24,000 nucleotides of DNA from NCBI RefSeq assembly GCF_003173035.1, contig NZ_QGLE01000003.1, forward strand, positions 44,731 through 68,730. The letters are read 5' to 3'. The position numbers were made by a program, and so were the translations under genes. Positions 6,179 to 15,178 of the stretch are shown piece by piece (the stretch's first letter is position 1; every line of letters begins with the position of its first letter). The notes under the pieces were generated by a model. The model made no database searches and was not told where the DNA came from. It worked only from the letters and a program-made list of their open reading frames with translations. Source of the DNA: Zavarzinia aquatilis (lineage in GTDB: Bacteria; Pseudomonadota; Alphaproteobacteria; Zavarziniales; Zavarziniaceae).

Positions 6179-7342
6179 TTATTGGGCCGGCGGCACGGGG
6201 GCGGCTTCAGTGGGGGCGGCTTCGGTCGGCGTCTCGGGCGCCGGGGGCGCCGCGGGCTTGGGCTCGGCGAGGTCGGCGCGCTTCGGCGTCAGGTCGATGA
6301 CCCGCGTGCCGTCGAGGCGGTAGAGCCAGCCTTTGGTGCGGGCGGCGATGGCGCCGGCCTCGGCCCGCGCGTCCTCCGCCGGGCGGACCACCGGCTGGCC
6401 GCCGGCATCCTGCGCGGGGTCGAGCAGGCGGCTCTCGCCCGCGATCACGGGATCGAAGGCGGCGTCGATGCGGGCCCAGCCCTGACCGTCGATGGAGACG
6501 AGGTCGAGGGTCAGCGTGATGCCGTCGAAGGTCTCGAAGCTCACCCGGCCCAGCGGCGTGCCCGCCGGGGCCTTGTCCGCCGGCTGCACATCCTCGAGCG
6601 CGAGATAGGAGGCGGCGACGGACAGCGCGTTCAGCCGTGCTGCCTTCACCTGCTCGGCACCGGGGTCGAGCCCGTCGAGGCTGAAGACATCGCCCGGTTT
6701 CGCCCGGCTGATCCGGGCGGCCGCGCCGTCGATGGTCACGCTCGCCGCGCGGAAACGGTCGGGCGAGATGACGACGAGATCGCGTTCCAGCCATTGCGCG
6801 GCGTCCCGCTCCAGCCGGACATCGGCCTCCGCTTCCCAGGACTGGGGCTGGCCGACCGGGCGGACGAAGAAGCGCGGCACCTTGGCGGCGCCCATGACCG
6901 ACGACGGCTTGCCGAAGATCATGTCGCCGAAGGCGCTGCCGTCCGGCCCCTTCACCGTCAGCTGCAGGCCCCGGGTGCCGGGGCCGATGTCCTCGACGTC
7001 GATGAAGTGGAAACGGTCGGGCCGCGCGGTCTTCGGCTCGATGGCGCGCAGGTCCGCGAGGGCGAGCAGCAGGCGCTGAACCTTGCCGAAATCGGCCGGA
7101 TAGTCGCCCTTTTCGGCCATGACCCAATGGTCGGCGCCGACGCGCTTCAGGGTGAAGCGGCCTTCGGCCCCGGCGACGTCGACTTCGGTCACATCGTTCA
7201 GCCGGGCCTTCAGCCCGGGCAGCATCAGCTGGCCGGAGAGATCGGCGCTGGTCTGCGCGATCTTGTTGGCGACGAGCCAGGCGCCCACGGCGGCAAGCGC
7301 GAGGGTGAAGCCCAGCAGGATGGCGAGGGTGGAGCGGCGCAT
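6179..7342 (-). CDS. DUF4340-like protein, last gene of the ABC-2/GldG-like operon
   Basis: ATG at 7342-7340 ('MRRSTLAILLGFTLALAAVGAWLV' N-terminal membrane anchor). Position immediately downstream of the GldG-like gene (11-nt gap) is the usual DUF4340 context. Ala/Pro-rich C-terminal tail. The upstream part of track ORF 6179..7873 is Arg/Gly/Pro artefact overlapping the GldG-like CDS. Confidence 0.75.
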   Translation of the reverse strand: MRRSTLAILLGFTLALAAVGAWLVANKIAQTSADLSGQLMLPGLKARLNDVTEVDVAGAEGRFTLKRVGADHWVMAEKGDYPADFGKVQRLLLALADLRAIEPKTARPDRFHFIDVEDIGPGTRGLQLTVKGPDGSAFGDMIFGKPSSVMGAAKVPRFFVRPVGQPQSWEAEADVRLERDAAQWLERDLVVISPDRFRAASVTIDGAAARISRAKPGDVFSLDGLDPGAEQVKAARLNALSVAASYLALEDVQPADKAPAGTPLGRVSFETFDGITLTLDLVSIDGQGWARIDAAFDPVIAGESRLLDPAQDAGGQPVVRPAEDARAEAGAIAARTKGWLYRLDGTRVIDLTPKRADLAEPKPAAPPAPETPTEAAPTEAAPVPPAQ

Positions 7343-7353
7343 GGGCTTCTGCC

Positions 7354-9288
7354 TCAGTTCACGCCGCGCCGCGCCCGGCGCCGGCGCTGGCGGGCCAGCG
7401 ACAGACCGAGGGCGACGAGGGCGACGACGAGGGGCACCAGCCCCATGTTGACGAAACGCAGGTTCGCTTCCAGCCGCTCGATTTCGACATCGAGGCTGCG
7501 CTGCACGTCGCGCAGCTGGCGCCGCGTGGCGGCGACCTCGGCCCGCGCGTCGGCCAGCGCCTTCTCGGTCTCGGCCGAGACGATGGCGCCGCTGCGCGCG
7601 CCATTGGCGCCGCCGCGCAGCTCCTGGATCCGGGCTTCGGTCGCCTGCAGCTTGGCCTGAAGCTCCTGGCTGCGGGTCAGGAATTTCTGCTCCGCCGCCT
7701 TCTTCATGTCGGTGACGACGGTGAACGGCCGGCTGGCCGGACCCCGGCCGCGAATCGCGATCAGGTCGGTGGAGCCGGCCAGATTCTCGACCGCGTTCAC
7801 GATCAGATTGCCATTGTCGGCGATGGGCACCGGCGCCTGGCGCCCGGCGCCCTGACCGCTGTCCTGCAGCCACAGGCGGTCGTCCAGCACGTCGGCGTCG
7901 GCGATGACGATCAGGTTCAGGCTGCCGTCCTTCACCTGCGCCCGCTCGCGCGCGCCGAAGGCCGGGGTCTCGCCCGGCTTGACCGGGTTCGGCTGGTCCT
8001 TCTCGTCGACCTTGGGCGGGCCGTCGGGGAAGGCGGTCCTGGCCGGGCCGGTGACGCGGGCGGCGAGGATGAAGCGCCGGTCCTCCGGCTTGAACAGTTT
8101 GGCGAGGTCTTCCGGATTGCCGGTCATGCGGACGGCGACCGGGTTGAAGGTGCCGGCATTGGCCGTCGTCTCGATCAGCGGCTCGACGTTCGTGGTGGCG
8201 CCGTCCAGCTTCTCGATGGCGCCCGCGGTCGCGAACATCACCTGGCTCAGGTCGCCGGTCACGATGTCGGCGGGGTTCATCTGCGCCTTGCCGGCGCGCA
8301 GCCAGACCAGATAATCCATCGGCCGGCGGTTGCCCGCGACCGTGACCTTGGTGGCGAGGTCGCCGTCGCCCACCACCTTCTCGGTGTCGACCTTGAAGCC
8401 CCAGGCGGCGGCCAGCGGCCCGATATCCGAGGCGGTCTGCGGCGGGGGCGCGCCGCGCTGGGCGCCCTGCATCGCGACTTCCGCGTTGGGGTCGAGGATG
8501 ACCACGGCCTTGCCGCCGCCCATCACGAACTGGTCGATGGCATAGAGCTGCTGCGGCCCGAGGCGGGGCGGATGGGCGATCAGCAACAGGTCGACATGGC
8601 TGCCGATCTCGACGAAATCGGGCGCCATCTGGCGGACGTCATAAAGCTCCGACAGCTGGGAATAGACCGCGAAGGGGTGGGACTGGCCGCGCAGCGCCGC
8701 CATCGGCCCGCCGAAGCCGACATCGAGCGGCAGCGACGAGATGACGCCCAGCACCGGCTTCCGCTCGGCGGTCAGCGAGACGATCATCCGCGCGAAATCA
8801 TATTCGAGGAAGGATTCCCGGTCGGGCGTGATCACCGGAATGACCTCGCGCCCGCCGATGGGTCCGGTGCCGACGAGGCCGAAATAGAAACTCTCGCCCG
8901 AGGGCGTGTCGTTCCCCTGGATGCCGGCGGCGACCGCCTCGTCCTCGGTCAGCGTGTAGGAGATGGGGTCGATGATCTCGACCCGGACCTTGCCGCCGCC
9001 CGCCCGCCGGAAGGCGTCGAGCAGCTCGGTCACCCGCCCGGCGAAAGTCTTGATCGCCGGAAACTGGTTGGACAGGGTCGCCGAATAGAACAGGCGAAGG
9101 GTCACCGGCTCGTCCAGCTTGTCGAGCACGGAACGGGTGCCGGGCGACAGCGTGTAGAGCTGGCGCTCGGTCAGGTCGAGGCGAAGCCCGGCGCCGCCGA
9201 CCTGCACGATCAGGTTGGTGGCGAGGAACAGGGCGGCGATCAGCACAAGCGCAAGGCCGCCGGCGACGCGGACGCGGGTGGGGGCCAT
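7354..9288 (-). CDS. GldG-like ABC-transporter-associated protein (ABC-type uncharacterised transport system auxiliary component)
   Basis: N-terminal TM helix followed by 'LTERQLYTLSPGTRSVLDKLDEPVTLRLFYS', which is typical of GldG-family proteins. C-terminal coiled-coil ('QELQAKLQATEARIQELR...') plus a terminal TM helix and an 'RQRRRRARR' stop-transfer sequence. Lies downstream of an ABC-2 permease. Confidence 0.85.
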   Translation of the reverse strand: MAPTRVRVAGGLALVLIAALFLATNLIVQVGGAGLRLDLTERQLYTLSPGTRSVLDKLDEPVTLRLFYSATLSNQFPAIKTFAGRVTELLDAFRRAGGGKVRVEIIDPISYTLTEDEAVAAGIQGNDTPSGESFYFGLVGTGPIGGREVIPVITPDRESFLEYDFARMIVSLTAERKPVLGVISSLPLDVGFGGPMAALRGQSHPFAVYSQLSELYDVRQMAPDFVEIGSHVDLLLIAHPPRLGPQQLYAIDQFVMGGGKAVVILDPNAEVAMQGAQRGAPPPQTASDIGPLAAAWGFKVDTEKVVGDGDLATKVTVAGNRRPMDYLVWLRAGKAQMNPADIVTGDLSQVMFATAGAIEKLDGATTNVEPLIETTANAGTFNPVAVRMTGNPEDLAKLFKPEDRRFILAARVTGPARTAFPDGPPKVDEKDQPNPVKPGETPAFGARERAQVKDGSLNLIVIADADVLDDRLWLQDSGQGAGRQAPVPIADNGNLIVNAVENLAGSTDLIAIRGRGPASRPFTVVTDMKKAAEQKFLTRSQELQAKLQATEARIQELRGGANGARSGAIVSAETEKALADARAEVAATRRQLRDVQRSLDVEIERLEANLRFVNMGLVPLVVALVALGLSLARQRRRRARRGVN

Positions 9289-9292
9289 CGGA

Positions 9293-10027
9293 TCAGCTCG
9301 CCTTCTTCATGTCGATGACGATGGCATTGGCCGCCAGCGCGGCCAGGATCAGCGAGGCGAAGAAGACGATGTCCTTCGCCTCGATGACGCCCGCGACGAT
9401 GCCGTTGAAATGGGTCAGGAAACTGAACGACGCGACGGTGTCGACGATCGCCTGCGGCGCCCAGCCCGAAAAGGCGTCGAGCACCATGGGCGCGCCCGAG
9501 ACCGTGAACAGGAAGCAGACGACGACCGTCAGCACGAAGGCGACCACCTGATTGCGCGTCGCCGCCGACAGGCAGGAGCCGATGGCGAGATAGGCCCCGG
9601 CCATCAGCAGCGAGCCGATATAGCCGGCGAGGATGACGCCATTATCGGGCTCGCCCAGGTAATTCACCGTGATCCACATCGGGAAGGTGAGGGCGAGGGC
9701 GATGGCGGTGAAGGCCCAGGCGGCGATGAACTTGCCCGCGATGGCCGCCCACAGCGGCACCGGCAGGGTCAGCAGCAATTCGATGGTGCCGCTTTTCCGC
9801 TCCTCGGCCCACAAGCGCATGGCGATGGCCGGGATCAGGAACAGATAGAGCCAGGGGTGGAAATCGAAGAAGGGCACCAGGTCGGCCTCGCCCCGCTCGA
9901 AGAAATTACCGACATAGAAGGTGAAGATGCCGGTCAGGAACAGGTAGACGATGATGAAGACATAGGCGAGCGGCGTGGCGAAATAGCCGGCCAGCTCGCG
10001 CCGCGCGATGGTACAGACGGACTTCAT
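9293..10027 (-). CDS. ABC-2 type transporter permease
   Basis: ATG at 10027-10025 ('MKSVCTIARRELAGYFATPLAYVFI') with a multi-TM hydrophobic profile. Its start overlaps the ATPase stop by 4 nt (ATGA). The upstream part of track ORF 9293..10390 is artefact. Confidence 0.85.
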   Translation of the reverse strand: MKSVCTIARRELAGYFATPLAYVFIIVYLFLTGIFTFYVGNFFERGEADLVPFFDFHPWLYLFLIPAIAMRLWAEERKSGTIELLLTLPVPLWAAIAGKFIAAWAFTAIALALTFPMWITVNYLGEPDNGVILAGYIGSLLMAGAYLAIGSCLSAATRNQVVAFVLTVVVCFLFTVSGAPMVLDAFSGWAPQAIVDTVASFSFLTHFNGIVAGVIEAKDIVFFASLILAALAANAIVIDMKKAS

Positions 10028-11052
10028 GGCCGGGCTCCGGTGCGGGCGGCGTCGCTGGTGGTCAGGTCGCGGAAGACGTCTTCCAGCTTGCCGTGTTCGA
10101 CCGCCATGGTCTCGATGGCGATGCCGGTCTGGCGCAGGCGCGCCGCCACCCCTTCGATGATGCTGGCGCCCTGCGCCGGCACGACGAGGAAATCGCGCCC
10201 CGGCGTGCCGCCCTCGGGCGTCGTCACCCGCGTCACCCCCGCCACGTCGGCCAGCCGCGCGCCGAGATCGGCGACGGTGGCGATCAGGCGCAGGCGCACC
10301 GCGTTGTGGAAGGGCGAGCGGGCGACCAGATCGGCCGGCTTGCCGTCGGCGACGACACGGCCCCGGTCGATGATCACCGCCCGGCTGCACACCGCCTCGA
10401 CCTCCTCGAGGATATGGGTGGAGACGACGATGGCCTTGTCCGGCGCCATGCGGCGGATCAGGTTGCGCACCTCGTGCTTCTGGTTGGGGTCGAGGCCGTC
10501 GGTCGGCTCGTCGAGAATCAGGCAGGGCGGATCGTGCAGGATCGCCCCGGCGAGGCCGACCCGGCGCTTGAAGCCCTTGGACAGGGTCTCGATCGGCTGG
10601 TCCAGCACGGCGGCGAGCTGAATCTCGTCGACCACCTGCGCCAGCCGCCCGGCCAGCGCCGCCCGCTCCAGCCCGCGCACCCGGCCGAGGAATTCGAGGA
10701 AGCTGCGGGGCGTCATGTCGCCATAAGCCGGCGCGCCTTCCGGCAGATAGCCCAGCGCCCGCTTGGCCGCGATGGCGTCGTTCTCGACGTCATGGCCGGC
10801 GATGGCGATGCGGCCCCGCGTCGGCGACAGGAAACCGGCCGCCATCTTCATGGTCGTGGACTTGCCGGCGCCATTCGGCCCGAGAAAGCCCAGAACCTCG
10901 CCCCGCCCGACCGCGAAGGAGACACCGTCGACGGCGGTGAAGGGCCCGAAGCGTTTCACCAGATCGACGATCTCGATCATCGGCGCGGCGGCATCCTCGA
11001 CGGCGCCAACCCTGGCATTCCGAACGGCGGGTTCATCCAACATGCGGCTCAT
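10024..11052 (-). CDS. ABC transporter ATP-binding protein
   Basis: Walker A 'GPNGAGKST', signature 'LSKGFKRRV' and Walker B 'CLILDEPTDGLD'. The start is uncertain: ATG at 11052, 11043 or 10980 ('MIEIVDLVKRFG'), none with a strong SD. Confidence 0.9.
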   Translation of the reverse strand: MSRMLDEPAVRNARVGAVEDAAAPMIEIVDLVKRFGPFTAVDGVSFAVGRGEVLGFLGPNGAGKSTTMKMAAGFLSPTRGRIAIAGHDVENDAIAAKRALGYLPEGAPAYGDMTPRSFLEFLGRVRGLERAALAGRLAQVVDEIQLAAVLDQPIETLSKGFKRRVGLAGAILHDPPCLILDEPTDGLDPNQKHEVRNLIRRMAPDKAIVVSTHILEEVEAVCSRAVIIDRGRVVADGKPADLVARSPFHNAVRLRLIATVADLGARLADVAGVTRVTTPEGGTPGRDFLVVPAQGASIIEGVAARLRQTGIAIETMAVEHGKLEDVFRDLTTSDAARTGARP

Positions 11053-11215: not shown

Positions 11216-11279
11216 GGACCGACCGAACATCAGGAAGGGGGCTGGGGGCTTGGGGGTCTTCCTGACATCCGGTCGGGCC
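11216..11279. other. Imperfect 22-nt inverted repeat enclosing a G5-run loop
   Basis: The arm 'ggaccgaccgaacatcaggaag' (11216-11237) pairs with 'cttcctgacatccggtcgggcc' (11258-11279) at 18/22 positions. The loop is 'gggggctgggggcttgggggt'. Confidence 0.35.
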
Positions 11280-11451
11280 ATCGTTGAGGACCAACGCTGA
11301 TGAAAATGCCCCCCCAATAGGGCCGCCGAAGGGCCGAATCTGGGCAAAAGCGTGGCGGGGGGAGGGAGGGGCTAAGGCAAATCGTCGTTCAGGTGAAAGC
11401 AGGATCATAGGGTCGGAAGGCATTTTAGTGTTTGGCGGGCAGATATTGAAT

Positions 11452-11498
11452 ATAGCGTCCCCAAAATTTCTCAAAATTTCTAGCGTCTCCAAAATTTC
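11452..11498 (+). repeat. Direct repeats at the left edge of the islet
   Basis: 'tagcgtccccaaaatttc' (11452-11469) and 'tagcgtctccaaaatttc' (11480-11497) match at 17/18. 'caaaatttct' is perfectly tandem at 11461-11470 and 11471-11480. This gives three CAAAATTTC units within 38 nt, about 330 nt upstream of the cassette. Confidence 0.6.
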
Positions 11499-11826
11499 CA
11501 GATTTATGATAGAGGCTGTATGATAGAAAAAATCCAAAACGGGAGGAAAATAAATTGCCCATCACCCGGCGGGGTGAAGACGCTGTATCATTTTGGATTT
11601 ATCTTTGTGGGAAGCGATCAATTATTGCGATAAAATCGCTTTTGATGATTTAAGATCAAAGTAATAAATTTGCATTTATATGCACGTTCTCCAGAATTAG
11701 TCGGAATTATGTTAAAATTTTCTATATAGTTTCTATAAATATTTATGTATCAATGAGTTACATCGAATGTAAGTGAAATCTGTTTCATACGAGTTGTTCG
11801 GAATCGAATCTCAGGAAGGCAATATA

Positions 11827-12384
11827 ATGAAGATATCAACAATTTATATAAAATGCCGCATGATTAAGGCGCTAAGAAAGATTAATGGTAAATGCATTTA
11901 TGCTATCGCCATTATATTAGTATTTTTTCCTTCAAGATTTTCAAAAGCGCAAGATGATGATATGTGTGATATTGTAAAAAATTTAGTATTTCAATTGCAA
12001 ACCGATCCGAGTGCGCTGCACGGAGAAGACGCAAAAAGAGATAATGAATTTATTGTTTCGATGCCGAGGGTAGTTCTTCCAAATGCGGAGGAATGTGAAA
12101 TCAGCACTAGTGATGACCGAGGAGGGTTGTATTACAGTTACGAATGCGCTTGGCCGCAAAATAAAGGGACGGACGAGGCGGATGCAAGGAAATTTGGCTA
12201 TGAACTTGCGAAATATATTTCAGAATGTTATGAGGTAAAGATTAATAATCAAGAAAAATCAGAGAGGGTGCGGTGGTGGGGTAATATACGTAGTAATGGT
12301 CAATCGACGAGATTCGAGGTAATTGTCCCATTGGGATTAAGATACAATAGGATTTCATTAAGATTCGGGGGGATTTCAGAATGA
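11827..12384 (+). CDS. Hypothetical exported protein (islet ORF A), 185 aa
   Basis: ATG at 11827 is preceded by 'AGGAAGG' (the track start at 11773 is a GTG with no SD). An alternative ATG lies at 11860. Sec-type signal 'MIKALRKINGKCIYAIAIILVFFPSRFSKA|QDDD'. Four Cys in the mature part. Its stop overlaps the ORF B start (ATGA at 12381-12384). No family recognised. Confidence 0.65.
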   Translation: MKISTIYIKCRMIKALRKINGKCIYAIAIILVFFPSRFSKAQDDDMCDIVKNLVFQLQTDPSALHGEDAKRDNEFIVSMPRVVLPNAEECEISTSDDRGGLYYSYECAWPQNKGTDEADARKFGYELAKYISECYEVKINNQEKSERVRWWGNIRSNGQSTRFEVIVPLGLRYNRISLRFGGISE

Positions 12385-13193
12385 GGGGTGATCGCCGTGA
12401 TTTTATCTTGTCTGTCTTGGGGGCTTATTGCGGCGGGTGCATCTGTGCTGTGCCGCGGGCGTTCGCGCAGTTCCCGCCAGCTCGCACCGATGGGCCAGAT
12501 CTTGGTCCTGAGTCCGATTTGAATCAATATTCATCGCGAGCCCGTCGTGCCTATCACGGTTGTGGCTTACGTTCGAATAGCGAGCTCCAAGCAACTTTTG
12601 GCGGATCTCAGTTCGGGAGTTCTACGGGGATTCCCGTGCTAGATGCTGGTCTGAATCGGGAACTTGATTACCTCAAGCGATTATTTCAAGTTAATCCGGG
12701 GGTTTTTACATACGCGGACAATAATGCTTTCGCGACTCCTGAGAAGATCATGGGGCACGATTATCCAGATGGAACGGTTGTTGTTGGAATCTCACTGATA
12801 TACGAGTTGTTTAGAAAATTCCAGGGGACCAGCTCAATCAGCATGGGAGATCATGCGCTGGTTGGTGTGCTGGCCCATGAATTTGGCCATATTGTTTTTT
12901 TCAAGAAGATGCAAAATTGGCTATCAGGGAAGCGTCCTGAGTTGCATGCTGATTTTCTCGCTGGTTGGTATACCGGGTGCCGTGCCTTAGATATTCCTGG
13001 GCAGGTCAATATCCAAGAAATATCTAAGCAGATGTTTGATATCGGGGACACGGACTTCAATAGTCCAAGTCACCATGGAACTCACGAAGAGCGGCTTGGG
13101 TTTTATACCTCTGGCTTAAGAATGGTTCTTCAAAATGGTCGGGTTCCCATTGATGCTGCATTTAGTGAAGCGAGTAGGATTTTAGGTTTGTAA
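12381..13193 (+). CDS. Tat-signal zinc metallopeptidase (gluzincin-type HExxH...ExxxD), islet ORF B, 270 aa
   Basis: Twin-arginine motif 'DRRDFIL', a hydrophobic stretch and 'AFA|Q' (aa 1-30). 'NAFATP' lies upstream of 'VLAHEFGHIVFF' (HEFGH at 12876-12890). 'ELHADFLAG' (12939-12965) begins 17 residues after the second His, comparable to thermolysin 'NEAISDIFG' and to the 'ELQAD' of YpfJ-type neutral metallopeptidases. Confidence 0.8.
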   Translation: MRGDRRDFILSVLGAYCGGCICAVPRAFAQFPPARTDGPDLGPESDLNQYSSRARRAYHGCGLRSNSELQATFGGSQFGSSTGIPVLDAGLNRELDYLKRLFQVNPGVFTYADNNAFATPEKIMGHDYPDGTVVVGISLIYELFRKFQGTSSISMGDHALVGVLAHEFGHIVFFKKMQNWLSGKRPELHADFLAGWYTGCRALDIPGQVNIQEISKQMFDIGDTDFNSPSHHGTHEERLGFYTSGLRMVLQNGRVPIDAAFSEASRILGL

Positions 13194-13240
13194 TTTAAAT
13201 GAAATTGTAGAAATGTTTGGTTAATGGAGGGGGGGGTAAA

Positions 13241-13615
13241 ATGTTCTTGAACAAATATATGATATTTTTTCTTAGTATAGTTCTTGAAGGTAATGCCGCT
13301 CTGGCTTATAATAGAAGTGAATTATTTATAACATGGTCTGGAGAAAACGATATCGGATGTTTTCTTATGAGCCCAAGAGGTCAGCAAACCTATCATGTGC
13401 CTAATAAAATGGAATCTACCGATAGAAAAATAGTTCTAATTGGGAATTCTGTGGAGCGCGGGGCATATACCATAAGTTGTGAGGTGATTGCTAAGCGAGA
13501 TTCGCGCCGCTTAAAATTCAAAGTATTTCTGCAGAATGGGAATGAAATTTTATTTACGTTTGATGGATTTACGGGAAATTCGGTTTCAGATTATTACAAA
13601 TTTGAAATTCCCTGA
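13241..13615 (+). CDS. Small hypothetical exported protein (islet ORF C), 124 aa
   Basis: ATG at 13241 is preceded by 'GGAGGGGGGGG' 4 nt upstream (the track start at 13217 is a TTG). Sec-type signal 'MFLNKYMIFFLSIVLEGNAALA|YN'. The mature ~102 aa have two Cys and alternating hydrophobic, beta-strand-like patterns ('KFKVFLQNGNEILFTFDGF'). No family recognised. Confidence 0.6.
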   Translation: MFLNKYMIFFLSIVLEGNAALAYNRSELFITWSGENDIGCFLMSPRGQQTYHVPNKMESTDRKIVLIGNSVERGAYTISCEVIAKRDSRRLKFKVFLQNGNEILFTFDGFTGNSVSDYYKFEIP

Positions 13616-13876
13616 ATCAAAATTTGATTTTGGAATTTAATTTTATTGGTACTATTTTTATGGATGATTTCGAGATTTTATTGAGCGTGGAATTGGTAAA
13701 AATTAATAGTTCTTGATAAAAAATATTCATGCCACCTAATTCTGTTGAATTTAATTTCAATGCTATATTGGCGCATTTGCCGAATTTCTCACCTCCTGTA
13801 TCAGGCAAGTGTGTACTGAAATGGCAATTGGCTGACGGTGCCGCATTTATGGGCAGGGCTTCAGGCCGCTTTCTGA

Positions 13877-13963
13877 GGCTTTGCTGACATTACCGAGATC
13901 GGCCGCCAATTCAAGCAAGCTGAGCTTGCGACGTGCTACTTTCTTCTCCGTGGTCATGCTCAT
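13877..13963 (-). pseudogene. Truncated transposase N-terminal (HTH) fragment, IS remnant
   Basis: 'M(S)MTTEKKVARRKLSLLELAADLGNVSKA' matches the conserved N-terminus ('RKLSLLELA..LGNVSKAC..') of a widespread transposase class, remembered as IS481/ISNCY-annotated (family uncertain). Similarity ends after about 27 aa and a stop follows at 13847. The DDE domain is absent. Confidence 0.55.
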
Positions 13964-14019
13964 CTCCGGTTGGGGGGATGTTGCTTGCAACTCCATCAAA
14001 CCCGTCCAGAGGCGGCATA

Positions 14020-14051
14020 GCCACACCGGCCCCGCGCGGGGCCGGTGTGGC
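14020..14051 (-). terminator. Perfect 14-bp GC hairpin downstream of the paraoxonase-like gene
   Basis: 'gccacaccggcccc' + 'gcgc' + 'ggggccggtgtggc', 41 nt after the minus-strand stop at 14093. No U-tract follows on either strand, so terminator function is not certain. Confidence 0.45.
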
Positions 14052-14092
14052 TCGAACTGTCGGGTCGTTACCCTCTCAGCACGCACAAAAGA

Positions 14093-15178
14093 TCACCGCC
14101 CCCGGCAATCCAGCACCTTCTCCTCGAACACCGACCCCACCAGGAACCGCTTCGGCCCCGCGTAAGTCGCGACCGAGGCGCCGGAGATCAGGTGGCCGGG
14201 GTCGGTGAGGATGGTCTCGACGTTAAGGCCATCGCCCTGGGGCGTGAGGCGGAGCACTTCCGAGGGGGAGAGTTTGGCGGGGTCGGCGGCGTGGGCGACG
14301 AAGTCGAGGAGGTGGGGGTGGCCGGCGACCCAGAGGGAGCCGTCGGGCGCCATGTCGATATTGTCGGCGCCGTTCGGCACCGGGGTCGAGGACAGCAGGG
14401 TGAGGCTGCCGCTGTCCCTGTCGCGGGCGTAAGTGCGAACGGCGAAACCCGTCGTCTCGGCGAGATAGAGCCGGCTGCCGTCGGGCGAGAGGCCGAGGCC
14501 ATTGGCGAAGCGGATGCCATCGGCCACCGGGCGGAAGCCCTTGCCGTCGAAATAGACCACATTGGCGCGCGGCAGCTGGAGGTAATTCTCGGCCATGAGG
14601 CCGAGCGTGGTGCGCGAGCCATGGTCGTTGCTGGCATAGAATTGTTCGGGGCCGACGGCGAGCACGTCGTTGGGCGAATTCATCTCGGCGCCGATCACCC
14701 CGCCCTTGTGGCTCAGCTTGCCGTCGGCGGCGACGTCGAACAATTCCACCCGGCTGATGCCGATGGCGTTCAGCCCGCCTTCGACATGATTGACGACGAA
14801 GAGGGTGCGGGCGCCGCTCGCCGGGTCGGTCCACAGGCTGATGCCATGGGGATGGAACGTCTCGGGCACCGGCGGCGTCACGTCGACCGGCACCGGGTTG
14901 GCGGCCGAGAGGTCGAGGAGGGCGATCCGCCCGCGCACCGGATTGCCGGCCATCAGGGCGCGGCGGTCGTCGATGGAGACGAAGGCCTGATGGCGGGACA
15001 GGTCGGCGACGATATCCTCCGCCCCGACGACGCCGGTGATCGCCGTGCATTGCACGTCGCCCGTCGCCTCGATGGCGCGGAACTGGCCCGCCTTGTCCAT
15101 CAGCAGGGCGGCGCCCCCGGCGCAGAGGGCGAAGACGGCGACGCCCGTCACGATCAGGCGCTTGCCCCAGCTGTTCAT
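14093..15178 (-). CDS. Paraoxonase/arylesterase-like (PON family) six-bladed beta-propeller hydrolase, probable lactonase
   Basis: By-eye alignment to mammalian PON1 as remembered: 'FHPHGISLW' vs 'FNPHGISTF', 'NDVLAVGPEQFYASNDH' vs 'NDIVAVGPEHFYGTNDH', 'FANGLGLSPDG' vs 'FANGINISPDG', 'SLWVAGHP' vs 'DLWVGCHP', 'SEVLRL' vs 'SEVLRI', and 'GSVFEEKVLDC' vs 'GTVFHKALYC'. N-terminal signal or anchor 'KRLIVTGVAVFALCAGGAALL'. SD 'GAGGAGAGAGAG' precedes the ATG at 15178. Confidence 0.8.
   Translation of the reverse strand: MNSWGKRLIVTGVAVFALCAGGAALLMDKAGQFRAIEATGDVQCTAITGVVGAEDIVADLSRHQAFVSIDDRRALMAGNPVRGRIALLDLSAANPVPVDVTPPVPETFHPHGISLWTDPASGARTLFVVNHVEGGLNAIGISRVELFDVAADGKLSHKGGVIGAEMNSPNDVLAVGPEQFYASNDHGSRTTLGLMAENYLQLPRANVVYFDGKGFRPVADGIRFANGLGLSPDGSRLYLAETTGFAVRTYARDRDSGSLTLLSSTPVPNGADNIDMAPDGSLWVAGHPHLLDFVAHAADPAKLSPSEVLRLTPQGDGLNVETILTDPGHLISGASVATYAGPKRFLVGSVFEEKVLDCRGR

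Follow-up and report, generated by a model that had tools for sequence, protein, structure and literature searches.

Composition of the islet

We analysed a window of 24,000 nucleotides of the Zavarzinia aquatilis contig NZ_QGLE01000003.1 (forward-strand positions 44,731 to 68,730), in which a segment of low guanine-plus-cytosine (GC) content carries three plus-strand open reading frames (ORFs), designated here genes A, B and C. This islet of ~2.5 kb extends from ~11420 to 13875, with a GC content of ~0.40 versus 0.69 for the host DNA. Calculated over 300-nt intervals, GC is 0.63-0.75 up to ~11400, 0.29-0.55 across 11450-13850 and 0.61-0.71 from 13850 on; overall, it amounts to 0.402 in the segment 11400-13846 versus 0.691 in the remaining window. 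The edges are approximate: the GC profile places the left transition at 11400-11450 and the right one at 13800-13876. A first-pass annotation, made from the letters of the DNA, had proposed a low-GC islet at ~11400-14010. The sliding-window run shows that the islet is real and sharp (GC drops from 0.69 to 0.40 across ~11420-13875), and the hand counts of GC that accompanied the proposal are exact (16/60 at 11641-11700, 20/60 at 13261-13320 and 43/60 at 10021-10080). The switch in codon usage described there is equally evident in the GC content of third codon positions (GC3), which is 0.34 in A, 0.46 in B and 0.30 in C versus 0.90-0.93 in five flanking host genes.

At the right edge lies the 5' remnant of an IS481-family transposase gene (13876..13963, minus strand), which begins MSMTTEKKVARRKLSLLELAADLGNVSKA... 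and stops where the low-GC DNA starts. The remnant comprises the first ~29 transposase codons (minus strand, 13963-13876) and matches the IS481-like element ISAs19, with 77-79% nucleotide identity over 13876-13957 and 81% identity over 27 amino acids; the truncated transposase fragment noticed earlier at this position is thus assigned to a known family. When the islet DNA was compared with plasmids, this fragment gave the sole match. Deviant composition and a mobility-gene trace, the combination that serves as a criterion for genomic islands, occur together here and, because of the GC3 contrast with the host genes and the IS481 remnant at the edge, the islet is regarded as foreign, horizontally acquired DNA. 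As had been stated from the first inspection, it contains no regulator, integrase or secretion-system gene, and the ORF list together with tRNA and Rfam scans likewise gave no tRNA or Rfam family within it. A repeat search revealed no terminal or flanking direct repeats at the islet ends, the promoter and terminator scans produced nothing exceeding background, and no leftovers of further donor genes were detected in the islet.

The three genes and their products

Gene A (11827..12384, plus strand) encodes a protein of 185 aa, for which NCBI calls the same product, and has a Shine-Dalgarno sequence (AGGAAGG) 8 nt upstream. Its N-terminal hydrophobic segment, ending AQ↓D (arrows mark predicted cleavage sites), reads as a Sec-type signal; cleavage is predicted after ...SKAQ at residue 42, leaving a mature domain of ~143 aa. 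The start of gene B (12381..13193, plus strand, 270 aa) overlaps the stop codon of A in an ATGA at 12381-12384. The B protein is predicted to consist of a twin-arginine translocation (Tat) signal, a flexible linker and a zincin domain: its N-terminus MRGDRRDFIL (MRGDRRDFILSVLGAY...AFA↓Q) has the layout of such a signal, with a twin-arginine motif (RRDFIL, compared with S/T-R-R-x-F-L-K), then a hydrophobic segment and lastly an AxA site, and cleavage would occur at AFA↓Q near residue 29. Gene C (13241..13615, plus strand, 124 aa) follows after a gap of 47 nt, with a Shine-Dalgarno sequence (GGAGGGGGGGG) at 13224-13235, and its product has two Cys residues and a putative Sec-type signal, an N-terminal hydrophobic segment ending ALA↓Y. 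The tight packing of the three ORFs, the ATGA overlap and the length of the gap agree exactly with the first-pass annotation, as do the HExxH protease motif of B (HEFGH) and the predicted export signals of all three proteins (Sec, Tat and Sec, respectively).

Each of the three proteins is 100% identical to a Z. aquatilis entry annotated "hypothetical protein", and in scans of A, B and C against Pfam, NCBIfam, PADLOC and PHROGs no score exceeded the cut-offs. A and B belong to two unannotated protein families. The first-pass annotation had viewed the three genes as one cassette and had proposed that homologues be sought for each of them. The searches yielded 86 relatives of B and a seven-member family for A, and the two genes occur together in every close relative examined. 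For C, no homologue was found in an index of 5.8 billion proteins, in plasmids or among the 3551 ORFs of all B-bearing loci, so that the cassette stands as a pair of genes and not as a triad. The stop-free frame that holds C spans 134 codons, which is unusual for AT-rich DNA: when the AT-rich tail was resampled 2000 times with a Markov model, 31 of the resamples contained such a stretch. Judged by the length of its frame, the strong Shine-Dalgarno sequence and the plausible signal peptide, C is probably a real gene; its product would be an orphan, lineage-specific exported protein, a passenger with the A-B pair.

Sequence features and predicted fold of B

The homologues of B are almost all metagenomic, and the residue counts given here rest on an alignment of 77 sequences. 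Within this alignment H166, E167 and H170 are kept in 76 sequences, whereas E187, H232, G233 and R238 are present in all 77, as are A190, D191, G195, G222 and G245. Near-invariant positions include C61, N115-A-x-A118 and the segment A165-H-E-F-G-H170. The B protein of the window retains intact both the catalytic residues and those of an M48-type plug (H-x5-R). At least 51 of the 77 sequences carry a twin-arginine motif, which makes Tat export a predicted trait of the B family as a whole.

The relationship of B to described peptidases is distant. B scores 16.1 bits against Pfam M48 (PF01435), below the gathering cut-off of 20.3, and 16.5 bits against the NCBIfam YpfJ model NF050010, below its cut-off of 250. 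Among the 77 members, 26 match M48 (E <= 0.01), 14 match PF04228, six match M78 and two match TAT_signal; the B protein of the window itself has no PF04228 match. A single-sequence search of the PDB with B returned only noise, and the family profile matched an HtpX homologue (PDB 3cqb) with E = 7.7e-4, in an alignment spanning the NAFAT and HExxH regions. Relatives of B were found in only three of 2.9 million viral contigs, and the gene is therefore not considered a phage module.

An AlphaFold2 (AF2) model of B (predicted local distance difference test score, pLDDT, 84.5; predicted template modelling score, pTM, 0.78) shows a three-stranded sheet, an active-site helix (157-176), on which H166-E-F-G-H170 is predicted to sit, and a "glutamate helix" (185-204) with E187. 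Foldseek comparison of predicted structures, which had also been recommended at the outset, pointed to M48-like proteins for B and, as described below, to Mog1/PsbP-like proteins for A. The top matches of the B model are the Geobacter M48 protein 3c37 (E = 0.013), BepA (probability 0.85) and a phage M48 protein (probability 1.0; template modelling, TM, scores 0.42/0.53).

Additional features of the family concern its cysteines. They make up 5.8% of the Tat signals but 0.6% of the mature part, an enrichment of ~9-fold. In 34 of the 55 sequences that bear the twin-arginine motif, this motif is followed by a CxC or CC pair, and 74 of the 77 sequences have C61, in a "GC.L" context where the mature domain begins. 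One possibility is that the Cys-rich signal and C61 form a thiol or zinc latency switch. We rejected B as a lipoprotein, on the grounds that its signal-peptide cysteines do not lie in a consistent lipobox, and as a regulatory protease of the ImmA/IrrE (M78) type, since it is exported and has no helix-turn-helix neighbour. A distant relative on a Microvirga ossetica plasmid (L113:822-3600) lies directly downstream of genes for an M15 peptidase and an N-acetylmuramoyl-L-alanine amidase and is followed by two Gly-rich exported proteins; such neighbours hint at a cell-wall-related context for some members of the family.

Sequence features and predicted fold of A

In the index of 5.8 billion proteins A matches only itself, and it has no match in plasmids and no sequence match in Pfam or the PDB. 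An exhaustive HMMER search of 1.84 billion cluster representatives assembled a very rare family of seven proteins including A, 149-187 aa in length. Four Cys residues (C47, C90, C107 and C134) are invariant in this family, and the Sec-type signal ends a few residues before the first of them. The AF2 model, built on the seven sequences, has a pLDDT of >90 in the mature domain and an alpha-beta4-alpha-beta4 topology. Its top Foldseek matches are all Mog1/PsbP-like (MTC28, PsbP, EagT6/SciW, DcrB, LpqN, TiME and YwmB; entries 4ol4, 1v2b, 6xrf, 6e8a, 6e5d and 7cu8), with probabilities of 0.9-1.0 but E-values of 2e-3 to 6e-2 and TM scores of 0.3-0.43. The mature domain of A is thus a predicted Mog1/PsbP-like alpha-beta sandwich. 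A role as a chaperone of the Eag type for a type VI secretion system was rejected in view of the signal peptide, the four invariant Cys residues and the lack of genes for such a system.

The conservation of both proteins bears on the question of whether the islet is inert. Foreign AT-rich DNA is commonly silenced in alphaproteobacteria by silencers of the MucR type, and the extreme mismatch in composition, together with the truncated insertion sequence at the edge, could be expected of a silenced, decaying insertion without function, or of a chimera created during assembly. However, the three ORFs are intact and each has a Shine-Dalgarno sequence, A and B keep every invariant residue of their families, and host-type sequence flanks the islet on both sides within a contig of 466 kb. 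We consider inert or artefactual DNA a very improbable explanation.

Pairing of A and B across loci

A and B form a conserved unit, of which C is not a part. All eight of the closest B relatives (loci L001, L004/L005, L006, L007, L008, L029 and L030), whose B sequences are the nearest to that of the window (37-53% identity) and cluster together, carry one or two adjoining A-like genes in unrelated genomic contexts. A single A-like gene stands directly beside B in L006, in L030 and in L001, where the identity is 37% and the two genes likewise overlap by 4 nt, and two paralogous copies are present in L004/L005, L007, L008 and L029, those of L029 being located downstream of B. In L008, the called A-like gene is preceded by a second A-like ORF (L008:2956-3516; hidden Markov model E = 2e-17) that the source assembly leaves uncalled. 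The metagenome scan added two loci, L060 and L062, also with A upstream of B. Upstream is the position of the partner in most loci, although the downstream arrangement also occurs, and the type of partner follows the B clade. The remaining neighbours are unrelated from one locus to the next (thr genes, a TonB receptor with FecR and an extracytoplasmic-function sigma factor, NhaB, thiC, LysR), and different, unrelated small exported proteins adjoin the A-B pair in L001, L029 and L031. The module is sporadically distributed, often within a local GC dip (e.g., L008 and L009).

In one metagenomic contig the two proteins are fused. A single ORF of 431 codons (L038:2764-4056) encodes a signal or anchor segment, a B domain, a Ser/Thr-rich linker and a C-terminal A domain with all four Cys residues; its N-terminus is of the Sec type and not of the Tat type.

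These arrangements also bear on the first-pass suggestion of a periplasm-acting toxin with its immunity protein(s), a kind of pair known from interbacterial antagonism. A small mobile unit in which an enzyme adjoins a variable small exported protein is what such a system would look like. Yet neither the window nor the related loci examined contain a delivery domain, PAAR, Rhs, VgrG, CdiA or secretion genes, PADLOC gave no hits, and the Tat signal of B itself would lead into the periplasm of the producer. An immunity gene would be expected directly downstream of its toxin gene; here the order of enzyme and partner is variable, and the two can be fused. The toxin-immunity model is accordingly disfavoured, and we attach very little probability to it.

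A sister clade with tagged partners

A sister clade of peptidases shares 28-33% identity with B. Its peptidase genes are directly preceded by genes for exported proteins whose N-terminal domains (DUF1036, LprI, TPR or unnamed) are unrelated to one another. All of these proteins end in a proline-rich linker and an extreme C-terminal motif, A-C-x2-[FY]-P-x-L-C, observed in 11 loci. Ten are metagenomic (L036, L040, L044, L045, L047, L051, L052, L056, L058 and L068), and the eleventh (L112:3430-3927, WP_249489052.1, adjoining the peptidase WP_085354048.1) is found on the Enterobacter roggenkampii plasmid pK666_111k. From its distribution the motif looks like a modular tag tied to the B-type peptidase family. 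The cysteines of the B-family signals and these C-terminal tags hint at a thiol- or tag-based coupling of the peptidases to their neighbours.

A shared C-x2-[FY]-P-x-L-C tag on otherwise unrelated upstream proteins is the pattern expected of a recognition tag, and B might then be a processing peptidase whose substrate, to be matured or cleaved, is the exported product of the adjacent gene, in the islet A. A itself, however, has neither the tag tail nor a conserved terminal motif, its compact, probably disulfide-bonded domain would be an unlikely protease substrate, and the complete A domain is kept in the B-A fusion. For the pair described here we consider a peptidase with its substrate or cargo rather improbable.

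Flanking genes and other features of the window

To the left of the islet, the minus strand (6179-11052) carries an ATP-binding cassette (ABC) set of the ABC-2/GldG type, comprising an ATPase, an ABC-2 permease, an ABC_transp_aux protein with DUF7088 and a DUF4340 protein. Its 5' leader, at 11216-11279, contains a 22-nt inverted repeat, and no Rfam family matches this leader. Just inside the left islet edge, in the AT-rich leader upstream of A, there are two copies, 28 nt apart, of an 18-nt direct repeat, TAGCGTC(C/T)CCAAAATTTC (11453..11498, plus strand), which may possibly represent an operator, a promoter element or a protein-binding site.

The right flank holds a PON-like (arylesterase/SGL) gene of host-like GC (14093-15178, minus strand) and also an ABC exporter. 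Downstream of the PON-like gene, between its stop codon and the IS481 remnant, lies a perfect GC-rich palindrome of 17+17 nt (14019..14052), which is the hairpin reported at this place in the first-pass annotation. No T-run comes after it on either strand, and the palindrome identifies the DNA right of the islet as host-type. A scan of 185,579 species genomes with the PON-like protein returned 19 loci, the top relatives being 30-43% identical and derived from Myxococcota, Rhodobiaceae and Bacteroidota (the best, at 43%, from a myxobacterium); none of the 19 is a Zavarzinia locus, including the source genome. Exact look-ups of the flanking proteins gave no record.

Proposed function of the A-B module

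With somewhat better than even confidence, we favour the reading that the islet is recently acquired foreign DNA carrying a mobile peptidase-plus-partner module composed of A and B, with C as a passenger; proteolysis by B, its latency through the plug, an A-B complex and the role of A are the parts that we infer. B would be a zinc metallopeptidase that acquires its fold and its zinc in the cytoplasm before export in the folded state via Tat. By analogy with H246 of BepA, the H232 plug probably holds it in a self-inhibited state, from which a partner or substrate would release it by pushing the plug aside. A would be exported separately via Sec and oxidised in the periplasm, where its four cysteines probably form two stabilising disulfides, and it may bind B there as an accessory subunit that recruits substrates or regulates the enzyme. 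In this capacity it would act in trans as C-terminal domains do in cis, the examples being the TPR of BepA and the natural B-A fusion. The ATGA overlap could provide translational coupling and hence a fixed A:B stoichiometry.

More tentatively, and as a reading that we regard as somewhat unlikely, the B family with its adjoining exported proteins may constitute an undescribed class of periplasmic two-part protease systems. In these, the specificity or control of a lid-less, Tat-exported mini-M48 peptidase would come from an exchangeable partner (the PsbP-like A in the islet, the diverse C-x2-[FY]-P-x-L-C-tagged proteins in the sister clade), and the Cys-rich signal and C61 could act as a thiol-based latency switch while the enzyme folds in the cytoplasm.

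Peptidases of the M48 type, BepA and HtpX among them, have a central part in envelope quality control, and the regulation of their access and specificity is under active study. In this regard, the locus suggests a minimal, lid-less M48 relative that is exported folded via Tat and is genetically tied, and once fused, to a partner domain. The A-B arrangement would be a simple natural system in which to study the in-trans regulation of an M48-like core, and it offers a first functional handle on the two unannotated families. The islet further documents a very recent transfer of AT-rich DNA into an alphaproteobacterium of 70% GC. If the pair is merely an ordinary accessory protease, the finding would amount to a routine horizontally acquired islet.

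Comparison with known systems

The M48 signature reads H-E-x-x-H-x(30,140)-H-P-x(4)-R, and in BepA zinc is bound by H136, H140, E201 and the plug residue H246 (PMC7950410). Like BepA, B appears to place its HExxH on an active-site helix and a Glu on the following helix, in which E187 would be the zinc ligand, and the spacing of the plug is the same, with 45 residues from Glu to His (E201-H246 in BepA) and six from His to Arg (H246-R252). B also shares with M48 proteins (BepA, HtpX, LoiP and YcaL; Geobacter Q74D82, 3c37) the upstream NAFAT motif and a predicted extracytoplasmic location, and its best profile and structure matches are among them. The literal plug pattern H-P-x4-R nevertheless fails in B, where the invariant Gly233 replaces the Pro; H232 lies 61 residues after H170. 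The lid of BepA (L146-I194, between H140 and E201, which are 61 residues apart) is absent, as only 17 residues separate H170 of the HExxH motif from E187. Unlike M48 members, B remains below the Pfam gathering score and is predicted to be Tat-exported. It also lacks a TPR or membrane domain, in place of which there is a predicted PsbP-like partner that is encoded separately and only rarely fused. With the lid missing and Gly in place of Pro, B is best described as a predicted lid-less, M48-like gluzincin of an uncharacterised family and not as a member of M48.

The putative neutral zinc metallopeptidases of PF04228/NF050010 (YpfJ, KPN_02809) resemble B in the layout of HExGH, E-L-x-A-D-x-x-A-G and H-G-x4-R. 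The second His of their HExGHH is missing in B (HEFGHI), however, and the N-terminal organisation differs.

The first-pass annotation had likened the islet to the serralysin systems AprA/AprI and PrtA/Inh, in which the gene of an exported zinc protease likewise stands beside that of a small periplasmic protein. Serralysins are characterised by HExxHxxGxxH with a Met-turn and by a C-terminal repeats-in-toxin (RTX) region and type I secretion signal, and their inhibitors are small eight-stranded beta-barrels. The likeness fails on both features tested, the peptidase and its partner. B is a predicted gluzincin that lacks the metzincin motif (it reads HEFGHIVFFKK, without Gly or His at +3/+6, and its third ligand would be Glu) and has an N-terminal Tat signal in place of RTX repeats and a type I signal, whereas A is modelled as an alpha-beta sandwich and not as a beta-barrel. 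Moreover, the A-B module contains no ABC, membrane-fusion or outer-membrane exporter component.

In the inhibitor model of the first-pass annotation, A, perhaps together with C, would block the active site of B in the periplasm of the producer, with a function like that of AprI/Inh towards serralysins. A is exported, adjoins B tightly and shares the ATGA overlap with it; the partner families switch with the B clade, as co-evolving enzymes and inhibitors would; some sister-clade partners bear an LprI domain, of the lysozyme-inhibitor type; and the domain fused to B in L038 could conceivably be inhibitory. The fold predicted for A, on the other hand, belongs to a scaffold or chaperone class whose members, to our knowledge, are not known as protease inhibitors. 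B already possesses the self-inhibiting plug residues of the M48 type, several of its relatives have no such neighbour, and the hallmarks of the serralysin/Inh system are absent. We therefore consider an inhibitor unlikely, though less so than a substrate, and favour a role of A as an adaptor or regulator on account of its fold class, its C-terminal position in the fusion and the plug already present in B.

The closest known counterparts of A are the Mog1/PsbP-like extracytoplasmic scaffold proteins (DcrB, MTC28, LpqN, TiME and the DUF1795 proteins EagT6/SciW), which are binding or adaptor modules and which A resembles in its predicted fold, its size of ~140 aa and its exported location. A differs from them by its four invariant Cys residues and its fixed linkage to a metallopeptidase gene.

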